Below, in pieces: positions 345-11,906 of a stretch of DNA of 64,000 bases (the first letter of the stretch is position 1; each line of letters opens with the position of its first letter). Below the pieces are notes generated by a model that was given only the letters and a program-made list of their open reading frames with translations, was not told the DNA's origin and did not search any database. The position numbers were made by a program, and so were the translations under genes. Source of the DNA: Eledone cirrhosa (lineage: Eukaryota); the NCBI GenBank assembly GCA_964016885.1, contig OZ024741.1:232128001-232192000 (forward strand). The letters are read 5' to 3'.

Positions 345-1994
345 TCTATACTATAAAGCTGACGTGGTATGTAGGTAACAAACTTTCCGCCAAACGCCTG
401 AACCAAACAGCACCAAATTTCCACCATAGATGTAACTTTTTCCAAGTGAAAAAATGAGGTTATTTTCGTCTACTTAATTCTGTTAAAAGATTAAAGACAT
501 TATTTAAATATTCACTTCTTTAAATGTTTCAAGTGTCAACACATCCGGTTATACGACATTCCTAACATCTTTACGAACCAAAGTATCATCTTCCTGTTTT
601 CTTTCGGTTGCAACGTTTTTCGAAATATTTACTTCTGCGTTTACAGATTGATTTTTGTTAGTTTCAGAAGATCCTGTTAGGGGTGAAAGCAGCGATTCTT
701 TGCTTAAACTTTAATTTGTTATTTTAATATATATATATAATTGTATATTCGTGTATAGATAGTTTTGCATACACAAAAACAAAATGTAAACAAACGTATT
801 TATTTCACGAAAGCACAGACGGCTTATCGTCATTGTTACTGCCGATATGCCACCCAAACAGTCCTAGCCTGGCCGCAAGATGAGATTTTCCAGAAAATAA
901 AATGTTACTAGAGCAAGAGAGAGACTAAGCTTCGCGATTACCCTCAACAAATCTCAGGGTCAAACCTTAAAAGTGGCTGGCCTTCATCTGGGAAAACCAT
1001 GGTCAATTGTATGTAGGATGATCTAGGTTGAGCTCGCCAAACAATCTCTTCAACTTTGCTCCCGAGGGCCAAACAAAAAATATGATATACTCTGTAAATG
1101 TAATTTATGTATTTTCTGTTATTTGGAATTTCCAATATGGTAGTACAAAGTAACGTGAAGTTTGTTAAAAAGAAGGAAGAGGAGAGGAAGGAGAGAAGGA
1201 GGAAATAAACCTACAATGAAAGAACATCTTAAAGTTTACCCGAGCCAAATGTTGTATTTTTTAACATTTATATCTGCAAGTTCTTAGCAAGCTTACTGGC
1301 GCTTTAGTATTGTATTCATTTCTCATCTCGTTTTTTATTGATATGGTGCATATATCGCAGCTATTCATATGTTTTAAACATTAGATAACGATTGCTGATG
1401 TATATTGTACGACAGAATTAGCTGAAAAATATTTTGAATGAACAAATAAAAGAGATAGAGTAACTTCGCGAATCACACGAATAAAAACGAAAAATGACAA
1501 TCGGAAAGTATGTACAGGATTGGGATAAGAGTATATCCAGGAAAGTTTATTGATACTAATTTTATAACAGCAAAGAAGAAGAAAGACATACCACGTATGC
1601 TAACCAACCTGATTGCTATTTCTAGCAGGTTGGGAAACAACCATAAGGGATTCTCTCTGCGAATTCGTTGTCAGTGATTTCGCGGCCTAAGTCTCCGATT
1701 CCCACTGTGGATTACACACACACACACATACGCACACACACTCACACTCACACAGGCACACACACATATATATATATGTATACGAACACATACACACACA
1801 TATATATATACACACACACGAACACTCACCCTCACACACACATATATATATATGTAGACAAACATACACACACACACACACACACAATACACACACACTG
1901 TAAACAAGACAATGCATTCAATACAGACGTTTTCTCTTCTGCCGGTCTTCTCATATCGTTTGTTAACCTTGGCGAAGCTGAGTACGTCAGCTAG
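345..1994 (+). mobile_element. Non-autonomous Helitron retaining a PIF1 helicase C-terminal fragment
   Basis: A|TCTATACTATAAA 5' end and ...gtacgtcagCTAG|T 3' end (AT target, no TSD). 922-1090 translates RLSFAITLNKSQGQTLKVAGLHLGKP / HGQLYVG*SR...GQTKNMIY. 3' end resembles the terminus at 32146. Confidence 0.85.
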
Positions 1995-2144
1995 TATATA
2001 TATATGTATATATATACTTAGGGTAAACATTGATGCAATTCAATTCAAGCACATAGCGTACTTTTTCCACATAGGATTGACGGAGTAAATATCGAATAAG
2101 GAAAAGCGAAGTAGTTTCAGATGTTCAAGTCCTTTAATAATAAT

Positions 2145-2218
2145 GCTGTGATATATATTTCAATGACGACACTGGCCACACTGTTCTGTGTGCGAGTGTC
2201 GTGACATCATCAGACAGC
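2145..2218 (-). ncRNA. Type I hammerhead ribozyme motif (unit 1)
   Basis: gctgt-CTGATGA-..acgacact/agtgtcgt..-GAAA-tatata-TC-acagc. Confidence 0.75.
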
Positions 2219-3441
2219 TTGTTACATAATAAGGTTATGTTTCCGAGGCAATCCAAATTGAATCGACATGGGAACGGACGAAGTGTGTGCTTTTAGGTAC
2301 TTCATCCGTTCCCCTGTGAGTACCAATTCACCCCCACCGGTCTGCGCAGGCGCATGTCCGAAGGAAGTTGACCATTAGCTACCGCAGATTTCAACGAAAT
2401 TCGCTTAGTCAGTTCACCCTATCAGCCAAACAATGACCCACTTAGGATGGTACCATATTTTACTGCTACCCATCCCGACTGTGGCAGTCAGCTGAAAGCC
2501 AGGGGGATGGGAGAGTGTTAGTTTTTACAGGTCACAATACTACCTCTCACTAAGCGTGGACAGTACGACTGACCATCAACTCCTAAGAGAAAAAAAATGA
2601 ATTCTAGGTATCATGGTTTTACATTGGAAGTTATGAGTGAGGGTAGGAAATAAAAATTAAAATCCTAAATCAAATATCAGAAATTATAGATTAAACAATT
2701 ACAAAATTAACAATTAGAAATTAAAAAAATGTTCAAGTGAGAATCCGGATTGAGGTGAGTAAAAGAATATATACACTGAAGTGAGTAACTAATATGGAGA
2801 GAGATGTTTAAGTAAGAAGTTCTGAGAGGGGTTCTAATGTCACAGTTACACTATCCACATATTGAACGATAGTGCCGTACATTAGAACGGAGGGTAAACT
2901 ACAGTATTCGAGGCAGTAGTCAATCTGGTACACAGTCATAATTTCCATCACATGGAAGAAAACCAAAGAAAAACAGACATAAAGTACACAAAAGAAAAGA
3001 ACCAATAATGAATAAATGCAAAAACACAGAGTACATATATGCAAAATGATCCATATGATTGTCAATTTGTCAATGTATAGATTGAATTGAGGGAGCTTCT
3101 GTTCAAATGCGATTTGTTGCAGCAAAATAGGGGTTTATCTTAGTTTTTGTTTCCGCGTATTTATCCTGCCGAAAGTTGTTATTATGTCCGTCCAGTGTCA
3201 GGGGTTTCCATCCCCATGGTAGAGGGAATTTCCAGGGGTAGCTCATGGTTGGTTCCTCTCTTCTCCACCGTATGGGTTACATCATAGAGCGCTCAACTAA
3301 TTGGAGCTAAATTCTTAGGGTAAACATTGATGCAAATCAATTCAAGCACTCAACGTACTTTTTCCACATAGGAATGACGGAGTAAATATCGAATAAGGAA
3401 AAGCGAAGTAGTTTCAGATGTTCAAGTCCTTTAATAATAAT

Positions 3442-3515
3442 GCTGTGATATATATTTCAATGACGACACTGGCCACACTGTTCTGTGTGCGAGTGTCGTG
3501 ACATCATCAGACAGC
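3442..3515 (-). ncRNA. Type I hammerhead ribozyme motif (unit 2)
   Basis: Identical to the unit 1 motif. Confidence 0.75.
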
Positions 3516-4738
3516 TTGTTACATAATAAGGTTATGTTTCCGAGGCAATCCAAATTGAATCGACATGGGAACGGACGAAGTGTGTGCTTTTAGGTACTTC
3601 ATCCGTTCCCCTGTGAGTACCAATTCACCCCCACCGGTCTGCGCAGGCGCATGTCCGAAGGAAGTTGACCATTAGCTACCGCAGATTTCAACGAAATTCG
3701 CTTAGTCAGTTCACCCTATCAGCCAAACAATGACCCACTTAGGATGGTACCATATTTTACTGCTACCCATCCCGACTGTGGCAGTCATCTGAAAGCCAGG
3801 GGGATGGGAGAGTGTTAGTTTTTACAGGTCACAATACTACCTCTCACTAAGCGTGGACAGTACGACTGACCATCAACTCCTAAGAGAAAAAAAATGAATT
3901 CTAGGTATCATGGTTTTACATTGGAAGTTATGAGTGAGGGTAGGAAATAAAAATTAAAATCCTAAATCAAATATCAGAAATTATAGATTAAACAATTAAA
4001 AAATTAACAATTAGAAATTAAAAAAATGTTCAAGTGAGAATCCGGATTGAGGTGAGTAAAAGAATATATACACTGAAGTGAGTAACTAATATGGAGAGAG
4101 ATGTTTAAGTAAGAAGTTCTGAGAGGGGTTCTAATGTCACAGTTACACTATCCACATATTGAACGATAGTGCCGTACATTAGAACGGAGGGTAAACTACA
4201 GTATTCGAGGCAGTAGTCAATCTGGTACACAGTCATAATTTCCATCACATGGAAGAAAACCAAAGAAAAACAGACATAAAGTACACAAAAGAAAAGAACC
4301 AATAATGAATAAATGCAAAAACACAGAGTACATATATGCAAAATGATCCATATGATTGTCAATTTGTCAATGTATAGATTGAATTGAGGGAGCTTCTGTT
4401 CAAATGCGATTTGTTGCAGCAAAATAGGGGTTTATCTTAGTTTTTGTTTCCGCGTATTTATCCTGCCGAAAGTTGTTATTATGTCCGTCCAGTGTCAGGG
4501 GTTTCCATCCCCATGGTAGAGGGAATTTCCAGGGGTAGCTCATGGTTGGTTCCTCTCTTCTCCACCGTATGGGTTACATCATAGAGCGCTCAACTAATTG
4601 GAGCTAAATTCTTAGGGTAAACATTGATGCAAATCAATTCAAGCACTCAACGTACTTTTTCCACATAGGAATGACGGAGTAAATATCGAATAAGGAAAAG
4701 CGAAGTAGTTTCAGATGTTCAAGTCCTTTAATAATAAT

Positions 4739-4812
4739 GCTGTGATATATATTTCAATGACGACACTGGCCACACTGTTCTGTGTGCGAGTGTCGTGACA
4801 TCATCAGACAGC
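4739..4812 (-). ncRNA. Type I hammerhead ribozyme motif (unit 3)
   Basis: Identical to the unit 1 motif. Confidence 0.75.
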
Positions 4813-5300
4813 TTGTTACATAATAAGGTTATGTTTCCGAGGCAATCCAAATTGAATCGACATGGGAACGGACGAAGTGTGTGCTTTTGGGTTCTTCATC
4901 CGTCCCCTGTGAGTACCAATTCACCCCCCCCCGGTCTGCGCAGGCGCATGTCCGAAGGAAGTTGACCATTAGCTACCGCAGATTTCAACGAAATTCGCTT
5001 AGTCAGTCACCCTCTCAGCCAAACAATGACCCACTTAGGCCTGTACCATAGTTTACTGCTACCCATCCCGACTGTGACAGTCAGCCGAAAGCCAGAGGGG
5101 ATGGGAGAGTGTTAGTTTTTACAGGTCACAATACTACCTCTCACCAAGCGTGGATAGTACGACTGACCATCAACTCCTAAGAGAAAATAAACTTAATTCT
5201 AGGTATCATGGTTTTACATTGGAAGTTATGAGTGAGAGTTGGAAATAAAAATTAAAAATTAATTGGATTGCCTCGGAAACATAACCTTATTATGTAACAA

Positions 5301-5374
5301 GCTGTCTGACGATGTCACGACATTCGCACACAGAACAGTGTGGCCAGTGTCTTCATTGAAATATATATCACAGC
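5301..5374 (+). ncRNA. Type I hammerhead ribozyme motif (inverted cap)
   Basis: gctgt-CTGACGA-...-GAAA-tatata-TC-acagc. N7 differs (tolerated position); two changes in stem II. Confidence 0.7.
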
Positions 5375-5412
5375 ATTATTATTAAAGGACTTGAACATGT
5401 GAAACTACTTCG

Positions 5413-5413
<1 letters not shown>

Positions 5414-5486
<73 letters not shown>
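5414..5486. repeat. (TA)n microsatellite (others near 14437, 15017, 17514, 21690, 22133, 42401, 42808; (CA)/(TG)n near 23378, 42862; (ACAT)n near 25170)
   Basis: Direct reading. Confidence 0.95.
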
Positions 5487-5960: not shown

Positions 5961-6149
5961 AACGGGCGGTGGATTGGCAGTATCGGTAGAGAGTCGGACG
6001 CCATGCTTTCCAGCATAGTTACGTCCCTTTACGATCTGAGTTCAAATCCCGCCGAGGTTGACTTTGCCTTTCATCCTTACGGGGTCGATAAAATAAAGTA
6101 CCAGTAATGCACTGGGTGATTGCTGGCCTTGTGCCTAAAGTAGAAACAA
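5961..6149 (+). mobile_element. tRNA-derived SINE, family B (octopus-type), with TSD
   Basis: gagttcaaatccc B-box, core gactttgcctttcatcc..ggggtcgataaaataaagtaccag, TSD ttaatttattgttatct on both sides. Confidence 0.9.
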
Positions 6150-7358
6150 TTAATTTATTGTTATCTTTTATATCCTGAAGAGATACGGATGTGACACAAT
6201 ATCTACAAAGAAGTCAGTTTTGCACTGGTAATATCCGGTTTTTCACCACAAATGAATGTGTTGAAACGTAATAATAATAGCCCCACCCCCAACCCGCGGC
6301 TTTCTTAAAATTTGAATTTTAGGTGCTCTGCAACCCGAACTTCCTTTTATTCATTTAGTTTCTTTTCACTCCTGGTGAACAGAGTGCGGTAAAGTGCATC
6401 GAATTTAGTATATCTATAAATGGAAATAGGGAAGTATTACACTTCAACCTAATATATTGTTATACACATATATATGTGTGTGTACGTATGTCTGTCTGTC
6501 TGTCTGTCTGTATGTATATATATATATATATATATATACATATATAAATGTGTGTGTGTGTGTGTCTGTTTTATACATATATATTATAAAGTGAAATGAC
6601 AGCAGGGTAAATATGTTCAATTTCCTTTAATTTTTTATTACTGTAAACACTATGCATTTTTCAGTGGTCAGATTGCATAATAATCTGGTGAGCACTTCAT
6701 GGTTAGATTCTCACGGATCAAAACCTAGTGTAGTGTTCAATTGATAGGATCGTGACCAGTCATAACTGTGGGAACTCCCTGTCTAAAGAAACCGGCTTGC
6801 TAATTGGACAATGTTACTTGCACACCATTGGTGAGCTTACACACATCCTCGGGGTTTTGTTATTATTTTTTTACTTCATTTTATTTTATTTCTGTGTCGG
6901 GTAACACACGTCCACCACTCAAACACCTATCTTGAAAGCTCAAGGGCCCATGTGGCTGGAAAACGCACATACTGGCACCTTATCTCAAATACCCAACCCT
7001 ACACAGAGCCCCTTGTTGGCCTACATGGCGGTTGCTTGCACGCACAGATTTGGGGACTCAGTTTCTCAATGGGACAACGGCACATACAGAGTTCGATATG
7101 AGCTGACTACTTGCTCTTCGCATGGATGTGTATATACCAAAACATACACTTTTTTAGACGATACGGATGTGTATATACCAAAACATACCCTATTTACAAT
7201 TCAATCGATACACGACTTGATAGTTTTATGGCCCTAGCTGAGGACGATAGAAGTCGGCGGGTTTTGGCTGCTTAATCTTCATATGGTGGACAGGATTTTA
7301 GTGGGTGATCATCTTTAAACTTTCTCGCTCATATCAAGGATTTGAAGACAATTCGTTT

Positions 7359-7432
7359 TCACCTGACGAGTTCAGTGATAATCGTTCATCGCCGCAATAT
7401 CGATCTATCTCTTATTGAAACAGGTGACGTGA
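7359..7432 (+). ncRNA. Hammerhead motif in 5' pLTR (cleavage triplet mutated to GAC)
   Basis: tcac-CTGACGA-g...t-GAAA-caggtg-AC-gtga. Confidence 0.55.
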
Positions 7433-7729
7433 TTAAAATGATTGGAAATTTATACCTTGCCTTCGGATCTTTATTTTGATACAAATACTCCGTTTTACAT
7501 CATCTAGCTGTTCCCATAAATAGAATTGGAGATATACAAAAGCGTGGAGAACTTAATATTGCTCACAAAAGGTTATTGGACCGTATGACACAACCAATAA
7601 TACACCTTTCTACAAAACAACTTAAAGCTCCTAATTCTGTTGAGCACTTAATGCTGTTAAGCAAGGAATATGATGGAGAAATTTTCGGTGAATTCTTCGC
7701 TTAAGGACATCCTATGACTAGCATAAAAT

Positions 7730-10410
7730 AATTCACAAGGTTGGCGATAGGTAAATCGGACTCCTTTGTCCGAAGAATGCGTTGGAAGGCCTTCCATTTC
7801 GATAGAAGAACACCAACAAACCACCCAGGGAGGGAACGCGCGGTATCGAGGGAAAATTCAAATCCAGAAGAAACCCGCCGCACAATAAGTACCTGGAGGA
7901 ATTCGGGAATGAAATGGCTAACAAAGTTTCCAAACTTAAGTTTAGGAAAAACCCACTCAGGAGAAAAAGCTACTTAAGACGACTGAACGATGATCTAGGA
8001 AAATTAAAGAACTCAATCGGCATTCTGGTGCACGCAGATAAAACTAACAACCTGTACGATATGGATAGAGTAACCTATGATGACTTGATAATCAGAGAAC
8101 TTAGAAAAAGTTATAGGAAAACTACACAGGCCAACCTGGATTTAATCAACACGGAGGCCAATAGCGTCATGACTAAATTGGGTATTGAAAATAAAACTGA
8201 GCCCTTCCATCCTAGAATTCCGAGGATGTTATAGAAAGGCCACAAATTAAACTTTGAATCATCAAGACCTGTCAGGCTGGTAGCCCCTTCGAAGTCGGAC
8301 ATAGGAATCGTGAGTAAAATCAACCTTGATAAAATAATCCCCACTCTAGTTAGGAGATCGAAGCTTAAATTATGGACAGGAACTAGGGAGGAAATTAACT
8401 GGTTTGAAAAATCGCAGAATAAGAATAGCACTAATTTCATACAGTTCGATATCTCTAACCATTACTCTTCGATCTCTTCAACTATTCTAGGTAAGGCCCT
8501 AAACTTTGATAGCTTACACACCGACCTTACATCTGAAGAAATTAACATTATTCTCCTAGCTAGGAAAACCTTAATTGAGTTCAACGGTGACTTGTGGACT
8601 AGGAAAGATTGGCCGGACAATTTCGACATCACCATGGGATCCACGGACTCGGACCAGATGACGGATCTGGTCAGCCTCTACTTCCTCTACTGTCTCGGAG
8701 TGGAAATGCCCCACGTGGGAGGTGGCGCTTACCGTGACGACGTTTTGTTTACTGTATCGTTCCATAATAATAATATGGTAGAGAGGGTGAGGAAAAAAAA
8801 AAGCAAATTCTTCAACAACATAGACTTAAGTATAGTGTTTGAAGAAAACCTGAAGATAGTTAATTTTCTAGATTTTACACTTAACCTCAATTCTGGACTC
8901 TTCCAACCCTACCACAAACCCAACGAGAATTTAAATCTTGTCAAGGCAAAATCGAACCACACTAGAATAGTCATAAACGGTATTAACAAAAGCGTCTCTA
9001 GTAGAATTTCAGAACTATTTTCCAATGAAGATACATTCGATAGGATCTCGAATTACTATATAAGCGCCCTGGAACGCGCGGGGCATACCGAGGGAATCTC
9101 ATTCAAACGTCAATTAAATAGTAGTAGCAACATTTCCTGCGATAGCTCAGGCCAAAATAGTGACACTTTTGTTAACAGCAGGCGAGAGGCGAGGGAGGAT
9201 CAATATACACTTCATGTTGTATTGCCTCCTAGTCCCAATGTCGATGGTACCAATGGAAACAATCACCCAGGTACAAACACGAGGTCCGAGCACCGTACTG
9301 CCAGCGGAAATTGTAACCTTAATTGTAGAACTGATAAAACAACTGTTGAACGTAAAATGGAACGGGAGTCGGGTAGAGGGAATAGGGATAAATGTAGGAG
9401 GCGCATAGTGGATATAACCCCGGCTATCGAGGGTAATCCCAATAACTGCATGGGGGGTACACCGCTCTGGAGACTTGGGACGATTCCGAACACCGTCTGG
9501 ACACCCCAGGACACCATCGACCCACAGGCAGTTATCAGTTCTAATAGTTCAGTAGCAACCAAGGAGACAGGTAACACTAGTATAGATATTAAGAACAAGA
9601 GGCATCGGACCAGAAAAATCCTATGGTACAGCCCCCCATACTCCACCGGCCTGACCACGAGTATAGCTAAGCTTTTCTTTGGGGCCTTAGAAAGATACTT
9701 CCCTAGATCACATAGATACTATAAAATATTCACTAGGAATACCATGAAGCTGTCCTACTCCACAACCAGTAACATAGCTCAGAATATAGCTAAGATTAAT
9801 TATAGTAGACTTAGGACAACCCAAGGCGGGATGAGACAATGCAGAACTAATGACAGCTCTATAGATGAACGGACTCATACGCGTGAAGCGAGTCGGGTCA
9901 CCCCAACCCCTGGGAAATTACCTATAGAGCAGACAAGAACTGAGACCCGACACCAGATGTACCATGGTTCCTCTGGAACTACCCAGGTCGATAACAGAAA
10001 ATGTAATTGCAGGCAAACCGCAACTTGCCCCATGGCTGGGAAATGCCTCACCAAAAACATAGTCTACGACTGTAAGGTCTCCACTTTAGATAGAACCTTC
10101 AGGTATGTTGGGGCAACTGCCACTGAATTTAAGGTAGATGGTATAATCACCGCCATACCGTTAATAGAATTGATAAAAAAAATAGCACGGCGTTTTCTGA
10201 ATTAGTCTGGAAGCTTAAACAACAGAATATAGAACAATCCTTATCTTGGTCCAGCCTTATAACGGCAGCACGGACGTCTGTAATTTATGTATAGCTGAAA
10301 CATTTAATATTATTAGAGGAGGCCCCCTATTAATCAATAGGAGAGCGGATGTTTTCAGCAACTGCCAACATAGAAGCTCGAAAACCCTCCGCGAGATTTT
10401 TGGAAAGTAA
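7730..10410 (+). pseudogene. PLE RT + GIY-YIG endonuclease ORF, frameshifted (resembles the Hydra clade)
   Basis: MRWKAFHF, HADKTNNLY, FIQFDISNHYSSI, FDITMGS, YRDD, NFLDFTLNL, ILWYSPPYS, CNCRQTATCPMAGKCLTKNIVY..RYVGATATEFK, spread over 3-4 frames. Confidence 0.9.
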
Positions 10411-11701
10411 CCTACCACTAACTCCTCCCTTTTTACCTTAGCCATAGAGTTCTCTCAATTAGCAAAAAACAGACAATCACACACTCAGGTAGTAGACAGC
10501 TAAGATCGTTTGCGCACTTACAAACGGTACTCGGTTTTTTGCACAGAGTTCTCACACCCGAGTGCATATTTACCACTACTTTAGAATACCTAGTTATTAA
10601 ATAGTGACAATGATTACACACTCATTTAAGACCGATTACGCTCATTCACCATTACTTTTGAATACCCTAACTATTGAGTTTTCTCGGTTAGTAAATTGTT
10701 AGACGTATTACACACTCAGTTAAGACCGATTACGCTCTTTATACATGACTCTACACACAGTACCCGGTTTCTTTAGACACGGAGTTCCCACAGTTATGAC
10801 TGATCACGATCCCATCAATTGAACACTACACTAGGTTTTGATCCATAATCATCTAACCATGGAGTGATCACGGTTGCTGATTGGACACCGTTACTTGCAC
10901 ACCATTGGTGGGCTTACACACATCCTCGGGGTTTTGCTATTCTTTTTTACTTCATTTTATTTTATTTCTGTGTTGGGTAAGACACCTCCACCACTCAAAC
11001 AACTATCTTGAAAGGCCAAGGGCCCATGTGGCGGGAAAACGCACATACTGGCACCTTAACTCATATACCCAACCCTACGCAGAGCCCCTTGTTGGCCTAC
11101 ATGGCGGTTGCTTGCACGCACAGATTTGGGGACTCAGATTCTCAATGGGACAACGGCACATACAGAGTTCAATATGAGCTGACTACTTGCTCTACGCATG
11201 GATGTGTATATACCAAATCATACACTCTTTTAGACGATACGTATGTGTATATACCAAAACATACACTATTTACAATTCAATCGATACACGTATAGGAGAA
11301 CATTGAACTGAATTTACTTGCGTTTGTATAGGGTTGCGGTTGACCCAATTTCTCCTTTCCATCGTCAAATTGAGATTTGACCAATATAACATTTGTTGTT
11401 TTGTAAACTAACTTTCGGTTAATACTATGTTGGTATATGTATTTTTTTTTTCTTCGACCTCACGTCGGTGTGAGTGTGTGTGTACCCACTGCAATTCTAA
11501 AGATTTGATGTTGAGATTAGACCCGTCCAGCGTCTTTTACTGCTATTGAGAGATATAGACTTGATAGTTTTATGGCTCTAGCTGAGGACGATAGCAGTCG
11601 GCGTGTTTTGGCTGCTTAATCTTCATATGGGTACAGGACTCTAGTTAGTGAACATCGTTAAATGTTATCCCTCATACCAAGGATTTGAAGACAATTCATT
11701 T

Positions 11702-11775
11702 TCATCTGACGAGATCAGTGATAATCGATCATGGCCGCACGGTCGATCTATCTCTTATTGAAATATGTGTCGTGA
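11702..11775 (+). ncRNA. Hammerhead motif in 3' pLTR (GUC site)
   Basis: tcat-CTGACGA-g..atcgatc/ggtcgat..t-GAAA-tatgtg-TC-gtga. Confidence 0.65.
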
Positions 11776-11906
11776 TTAAAATGATTGGAAATGTATACCT
11801 TGCCTTCGGATCTTTATTTTGATATATATATATATATAAGCATATATGATGATTTCTTTGTATGTATTTAATAGGTGTATTAAATATCTCTCTATTCAAT
11901 CTTTAG

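Follow-up and report, generated by a model that had tools for sequence, protein, structure and literature searches.

What kind of element is a tandem array of 1297-bp units that each carry a hammerhead motif and encode no recognisable protein, and which enzyme could have moved it? The question is raised by a locus in a 64,000-nucleotide stretch of the Eledone cirrhosa genome (GenBank assembly GCA_964016885.1, contig OZ024741.1, positions 232,128,001 to 232,192,000), called here the window. The array belongs to a dispersed family of protein-less 1.3-kb units that is probably moved in trans by the reverse transcriptase (RT) and endonuclease (EN) of Hydra-clade Penelope-like elements (PLEs), that is, a Hydra-mobilised non-autonomous PLE. 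The observed basis of this reading is the dispersal of the family, its lack of an open reading frame (ORF), the anatomy of its insertions and a module common to the unit and Hydra PLEs. Because this hammerhead-tail-leader module is shared with autonomous Hydra PLEs, the Hydra clade is the likely mobiliser.

An exact pattern for the intact hammerhead gave 1,224 matches genome-wide, and its reversed-pattern control gave 0. With the hammerhead region as query, DNA searches of the same genome returned 1,697 first-look candidates; the junction between units gave 1,636 and q54-354 gave 773, 40 being scored for each query, and these figures are not copy numbers (q is the unit position on the minus strand, the RNA sense, with q1 at 3313 and q1297 at 2017). 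Insertion anatomy was read from 50 independent loci, kept from the 66 fetched first after 16 had been dropped as duplicates or as the window itself. Their 5′ ends are variable, with partial tandems and inverted arms, and their 3′ ends form two clusters beside a microsatellite, at about q1220 and q1296-7; the target is (TA)n and in some cases (TC)n. Inverted insertions with both arms visible often had the extra 77 nt in one arm only. Variable 5′ ends, partial tandems, inverted arms and a tail are described insertion marks of PLEs (PMC8557442; PMC11167929), the tail being the span between two RT start sites (PMC11167929). The family therefore combines 5′ truncation, partial tandems that form pseudo-long terminal repeats (pLTRs), inverted 5′ copies, a tail and a microsatellite target, all proper to a non-autonomous PLE. 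Median divergence from the majority allele is 2.2% among top-scoring copies (84 segments). Older subfamilies show 71-91% identity, and an older sister family of ~1.7 kb, in which a long ORF was not seen, has 72-80% identity over q966-1295. An earlier note on this DNA had proposed to look for dispersed copies, which exist, and had inferred a young family, which is true of the latest subfamily and not of the older ones or the sister. An unmatched end seen in public contigs was traced to this RT-less sister family, not to a parent. The sister family (L181:3584-5030, L182:3630-5290) has G-C at the stem II base and conserved blocks near q76-270 and q966-1295.

The unit is protein-less. Its longest ORF has 108 aa, neither this nor a 57-aa ORF has a Pfam match, and tblastx of the unit against PLE ORFs gave no match. 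The single RT and GIY-YIG ORF with RWK, DKT and CxCx5C that characterises an autonomous Hydra-clade PLE is absent. A putative N-terminal ORF remnant, seen at q50-250, did not stand up (tblastn E=0.9 at best, no HMM score). Parent candidates from GIY-YIG and Hydra EN searches were likewise discarded, the unit matches being neighbouring insertions only, and at L179 a Hydra ORF directly past the sister tail is most readily explained by nested insertion.

In the window, three direct copies on the minus strand are spaced 1297/1297 nt and make 2.5 units in total, with a unit GC content of 39%. Unit 1 (2017-3313), the 3′-terminal full unit, ends at the second start site and is joined to TA; unit 2 (3314-4610) is 99.5% identical to it (7 differences in 1297); unit 3 (4611-5257), 5′-truncated (q652-1297) and 96% identical, is the pLTR of the original partial tandem. 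The inverted 5′ arm (5263-5414, plus strand; q1058-1209) comprises 152 nt, 97% complementary, carries its own hammerhead motif without a tail, and abuts the target microsatellite, (TA)36.5, which forms the right flank at 5414-5486; the left flank is an imperfect short TA run at about 1995-2016. The 77-nt tail between the two family-wide 3′ ends (q1221-1297) lies at 3314-3390 on the minus strand, with further copies at 2017-2093 and 4611-4687. A 10-mer near 3230 resembles the kappaB consensus.

Exactly four hammerhead motifs were located on both strands of the whole window by a scan for the core and stem I. Three are type I motifs on the minus strand, at 2145-2218 (unit 1), 3442-3515 (unit 2) and 4739-4812 (unit 3), with the core CUGAUGA at 2213, 3510 and 4807; the fourth, in the inverted arm, is on the plus strand at 5301-5374, with CUGACGA at 5306. 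They have stem I GCUGU/ACAGC, GAAA and a palindromic UAUAUA stem III, and in unit 1 the predicted cut falls after C2150 (q1164), between 2150 and 2149. The array is thus as the earlier note had drawn it with respect to the 1297-nt spacing, one type I motif per unit with these elements and this cut, an inverted copy of about 150 bp of the hammerhead region, and enclosure in TA; its "near-identical" units are so for units 1 and 2 and not for unit 3. A type I motif in at least two consecutive tandem units is also a feature of non-LTR retrozymes. The motif departs from a canonical hammerhead with normal helix sizes in its short palindromic stem III and in its first stem II pair, which is U.U and not G-C. 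Since Rfam gave no hammerhead match at the gathering score or at E<=5, the hammerhead call rests on core, stems and covariation; core and stems are retained across subfamilies with compensatory changes. Published PLE-type hammerheads cleave slowly and as dimers (PMC6765202), and the family hammerhead would probably cleave slowly, as a dimer or with protein help. Directly past the cut site (family q1170-1185), a repeat of ~200 nt resembling a short interspersed element (SINE) stands in (ATT)n in 28 of 192 distinct contexts; these inserts have many different lengths and are probably independent insertions at a hotspot. A solo copy of the repeat is found at about 5970-6150 of the window.

The relation to the Hydra clade emerges from comparison with coding elements of the same genome. 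At L184 a PLE ORF is followed, without a TA break, by ~1,070 nt and a hammerhead with a UAUAUA stem III, and its tail carries a motif common to the 1297-bp unit. In a pattern search, 17 of 30 loci of the L184 family had a hammerhead motif 1.0-1.4 kb past the EN, one of the 17 (L243) being of a different family. The ORFs of these PLEs contain RWR/RWK, DKT, CxCx5C, CxxC and CxH, which are Hydra-clade marks (Craig et al., 2021, PMC8557442). In full-length elements (L247, L258, L260, L263) the succession is hammerhead, start 1, hairpin, start 2, hairpin, ATG, and its hammerhead-tail-leader part recurs in the unit. Global module alignment of the unit with L260, L263 and L247 gave z=5.4, 4.1 and 4.2 (1,000 shuffles), and with L258, of a second Hydra family, a weak z=2.6 (8 of 1,000 shuffles), these shuffles losing the hammerhead core for which all modules had been selected. 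Among the first 30 of 319 matches to the leader motif, 26 belong to the 1297-bp family and 4 to autonomous Hydra PLEs of other sequence. Apart from the common stem III, a C.C mismatch at stem II position 4 is found in the 1297-bp family (60/60 and 10/10), the sister (16/16), a third family (3/5) and the Hydra type (39/40), the patterns having preset the 5′ C and not the 3′ C; the base pairs around it differ between families. The 3′-end likeness to autonomous Hydra families is one of motifs and of modules at z=4-5, and no high-identity parent was found. Copying by a PLE RT in trans, as the earlier note had suggested, agrees with the PLE insertion marks, and is refined here to the Hydra clade as likely mobiliser.

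Each of the two 3′ ends is accompanied by a bulged hairpin motif. Hairpin 1 (ACUC-C..G-UU-GAGU; 3345-3383 on the minus strand, also 4642-4680, mutated in unit 1 at 2048-2086) has its CUCC 8 nt past start site 1. Hairpin 2 (GCUC-C..G-UU-GAGC; 3288-3307 on the minus strand, also 4585-4604) has it 7-8 nt past start site 2 and occupies the same place as the leader before the ATG in autonomous Hydra PLEs. The consensus, RCUC-C..G-UY-GAGY, recurs in two families of autonomous Hydra PLEs; in family B one hairpin reads C(UUCG)G and the other has U-A for C-G. In 2.3 Mb of fetched sequence, RCUC-C(N)G-UY-GAGY-RCU has 295 instances on both strands, against 1-3 in shuffles, most of the 295 being copies of the 1297-bp family. 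Their outer pair is A-U in 215 and G-C in 70 (285/295 for either), G.U in 6 and A.A in 4. The offset, counted from CUCC to the last element-matching base at the microsatellite junction, is 8 nt in 41/51 junctions of hairpin 1 and 7-8 nt in 19/21 of hairpin 2 in the 1297-bp family, and 8 nt in 10/11 of hairpin 1 in Hydra A. The other three hairpins give windows that include 7 or 8: 9-5 (8/8); 7-3 (23/37) and 11-8 (13/37); and 7-4 (18/20). Junctions are thus compatible with a 7-8 nt offset at 6/6 hairpins of 3 families. A fifth compared family has a hairpin variant with a U-A inner pair, missed by the pattern, and ends 7 nt before it; past the hammerheads of Neptune and Poseidon-like families (up to 6 loci each, 4 families) the motif was not found. 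A first metagenome scan gave no Hydra-like loci and a further one gave four (L336-L339). L337, on a metagenome contig (39% identity; CxCx5C, CxxC, CxH), has a hammerhead-like motif followed by the hairpin motif (39/20,000 shuffles); the 3′ sequence of L336 beyond the ORF has neither, L338 is without the 3′ end of its ORF, and L339 is a weak match.

These junctions suggest, with a moderate to fair degree of confidence, that the hairpin positions the RT, and binding of the motif by the enzyme would be in line with the requirement of an anole PLE for RNA 3′ of the start (PMC11167929). A wider proposal is plausible and gently favoured: Hydra-clade RTs would recognise a conserved bulged hairpin and start cDNA at a fixed 7-8 nt upstream, the duplicated hairpin would explain the PLE tail, and kilobase hammerhead RNAs, possibly circular, would have captured the module as a long-lived parasite lineage. 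In telomerase RT, too, an RNA structure sets the template boundary, to which a hairpin-set start can be likened.

In addition to the weak L258 score and the limits attached above to the module scores and to the hairpin count, several observations weigh against Hydra mobilisation. A Hydra N-terminal profile detected a neighbouring Hydra ORF and no ORF remnant in the unit. The exact autonomous parent was not found among 30 GIY-YIG loci, 20 long-ORF regions and two Hydra EN queries of 30 loci each, no fetched PLE locus having the body or stem I of the unit. TA microhomology blurs the junctions by several bases, with windows of about 3-11 nt at three autonomous hairpins. Only one of the four metagenome loci (L337) has the hairpin motif, hairpin 1 of the 1297-bp family, when folded by itself, has a different energy minimum, and the short hairpins are weak, about -4 to -5 kcal/mol. 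Finally, at two loci (L333:7600, L334:8729) a 5′-truncated unit stands head-to-head with a non-Hydra PLE, joins that may be nested insertions or mixed-template events.

Other explanations of the unit have to be weighed with these points in mind. It could be just the pLTR or 3′ untranslated region (UTR) of a regular autonomous PLE, with coding copies that escaped the searches; at 1.0-1.4 kb, the 3′ UTRs of the genome's Hydra elements are near the unit in size, and only top-scoring or first-listed matches were inspected. However, past start site 2 and hairpin 2, the position of the autonomous ORF, all family loci seen enter the next unit: 30/30 junction loci run on from q1297 into q1, two of them the window's own, and the head-to-tail join is also present in public short-read contigs. 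A same-strand PLE ORF contiguous with the family hammerhead was found at 0 of 40 loci, picked from the first 100 listed, all on contig C1 and weighted to older subfamilies; 14 of the 40 have a PLE protein match up to 4.5 kb upstream, always on the opposite strand or separated by a microsatellite or an inverted arm. A pLTR of a full-length element, which the earlier note had named as a way to be wrong, is accordingly quite improbable. The mobiliser might instead be of Neptune or Poseidon type, given that Neptune families have long intact ORFs (938 and 1,020 aa) and also end in (TA)n, and that the two head-to-head joins involve such elements. Yet the hairpin motif is missing from the hammerhead-tail modules of these PLEs, which bear no likeness to any part of the unit. 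The two joins are with PLEs of different families, and in a third such case the insertion into an arm came later. A Neptune- or Poseidon-type mobiliser thus appears just as improbable, and the Hydra clade is retained. In the genome at large, long intact PLE ORFs at L097, L099, L257 and L258 are of Neptune type (938 and 1,020 aa) and Hydra type (713 aa).

A distinct question is the form of the template. In the classical retrozyme cycle, read-through RNA self-cleaves to 1297-nt monomers and circularises, and the circle serves a PLE RT as template for multimeric cDNA. Same-strand pairs at subfamily-diagnostic sites mismatch in 16/167 cases within a locus and in 13,323/29,365 between loci, and rare variants are shared at 6.0 per kb within and 0.1 per kb between loci; with subfamily alleles and rare variants shared in this way within a locus, all units of an insertion go back to a single template sequence, as the cycle would have it. 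Moreover, 1,040 of 1,103 copies (94%) with 30 nt past the cut also keep 6 nt before it, which a ligated circle would allow and which implies that cleaved linear RNA is rarely the template; at the level of loci 29/30 run through, the other having a point change, and 5′ ends were not found to accumulate at the cut site. The compensatory changes already mentioned also favour the cycle, as does an array of about nine units (C1:130.88 Mb) with full units 5.5-8.6% apart, which makes primary multimers of more than 1.5 units probable. Nevertheless, within-locus sharing and cut-site crossing fit a circle, uncleaved multimers or template jumps alike, and conversion as well. In the anole PLE, in vitro insertion was unaffected by mutation of the hammerhead, and RNA-seq reads with an end at the cut were absent (PMC11167929); dimers of Xenopus retrozymes gave no cleavage product in 8 of 9 (10.64898/2026.07.22.740005); and the family hammerhead has a minimal stem III and U.U as its first stem II pair. 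The near-identical units, moreover, look like later duplicates. In the window only 0.5% divergence separates units 1 and 2, which have 20 rare variants in common, against 2.6-3.4% for unit 3 and the arm; the 3′ end of unit 2 also agrees with unit 3, as expected of a crossover product. L292 repeats the pattern (0.2% against 2.4-4.0%), and the nine-unit locus has near-identical duplicates beside its divergent units. The 2.5-unit array therefore probably began as an insertion of 1.5 units and grew by a later duplication, unit 2 being the post-insertion duplicate; the near-identity of units 1 and 2 overstates youth and is no evidence of rolling-circle copying. The classical cycle, and with it a circular template, is possible and somewhat doubtful. 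That the tandem is an assembly artefact, for which the 99.5% identity of units 1 and 2 and a locus without a long-read check could be cited, is very unlikely in view of their 7 differences, the crossover-like 3′ end of unit 2, the same pattern at L292 and C1:130.88 Mb, and the join in independent reads; it would alter local copy number only. The nine-unit array itself (L290/L291, G000:C1:130.88-130.89 Mb) is inverted and mixes old and freshly duplicated units.

Under Hydra mobilisation, the events might run as follows. Tandem units would be transcribed from a promoter in the upstream unit, and a Hydra protein would bind the bulged hairpin 3′ of the hammerhead, nick (TA)n and start cDNA 7-8 nt 5′ of the hairpin's CUCC; two hairpins would give two start sites and hence the 77-nt tail. 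Copying would pass at least one hammerhead on uncleaved or re-ligated RNA and stop at variable points, second-strand priming would produce the inverted arm, and unequal exchange between direct repeats would later have added unit 2 in the window.

Among known systems, the family acts like an animal non-LTR retrozyme. Such retrozymes are also non-coding tandem units with one type I hammerhead each and a GC content below 45% (PMC7229834; 10.64898/2026.07.22.740005), and they coexist with PLEs and have been proposed as non-autonomous PLE derivatives (10.64898/2026.07.22.740005). The family fits that proposal and is assigned as a non-autonomous PLE, departing from retrozymes in size and in its non-canonical hammerhead. 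At 1297 nt (sister ~1.7 kb) the unit is, as the earlier note had remarked, unusually large against the 170-400 nt (PMC7229834) and 51-972 bp described, the latter in a search whose period was capped at 1000 (Li, Clavereau and Pollet, 2026, 10.64898/2026.07.22.740005). Its stem III is of the minimal PLE type, most copies are 5′-truncated with inverted arms and a tail, and it is linked to the Hydra clade. With Hydra-clade EN+ PLEs (Craig et al., 2021, PMC8557442) it shares the (TA)n target, hammerhead, partial tandems, inverted arms and tail, as well as the stem III, C.C mismatch, two hairpin motifs and leader; it differs in having no RT-EN ORF or detectable remnant, another stem I and body, and a 77-nt tail against the 30-40 bp described for PLEs (PMC8557442). 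Non-autonomous Chlamys PLEs such as MRC1 are likewise protein-less, pLTR-forming and multicopy head-to-tail, with 3′ ends like those of autonomous families, but belong to another clade and kingdom and mostly lack a canonical hammerhead (PMC8557442). In the Anolis Poseidon element PAc, two internal RT starts 3′ of the hammerhead also define the tail and RNA 3′ of the start is needed, but a single AC-rich stem-loop within the ORF contains both starts (Frangieh et al., 2024, PMC11167929), whereas in the 1297-bp family each start is paired with its own bulged hairpin copy, before the position of the ORF start. A literature search found no publication on the 1297-bp family, the Hydra-retrozyme link or the hairpin motif; Repbase/Dfam, and the supplementary files of Craig et al. 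and Li et al., lay outside that search and may hold them.

It is an open question how PLE proteins choose their RNA and internal starts, as is the identity of the enzyme that moves animal retrozymes (PMC8557442; PMC11167929; 10.64898/2026.07.22.740005). As a genomic parasite the element is nothing out of the ordinary; its significance is the connection of a retrozyme-like family with a single PLE clade, made by a short and mutable RNA motif whose distance from insertion ends is fixed. This motif gives a signature by which other genomes can be searched for Hydra parasites and is amenable to direct in vitro testing. The size of the unit also suggests that kilobase hammerhead parasites escape searches capped at 1-kb periods.

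Related elements are present in the window and elsewhere in the genome. A degraded full-length Hydra-clade PLE, a partial tandem with an inverted 5′ arm, occupies 6688-11830 on the plus strand; it has RWK, DKT and CxCx5C, a frameshifted ORF at about 7690-10410 and hairpin motifs near 7478 and 7627, and is otherwise unrelated to the unit sequence. At about 575-730 (plus strand) there is a 5′-truncated 3′ end of Hydra family B (L258 type), ending at the first start site in TA; the hammerhead of this family has the core variant CAGAAGA. A second hammerhead tandem family, at L098:6510-7420, has a period of 459 nt, two units inside (TA)n and a stem I sequence identical to that of the 1297-bp family. 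Further short hammerhead-tail families at L021, L023, L028, L129, L148, L159, L007 and L036 often form inverted pairs in (TA)n and carry the same tail hairpin or a variant of it.

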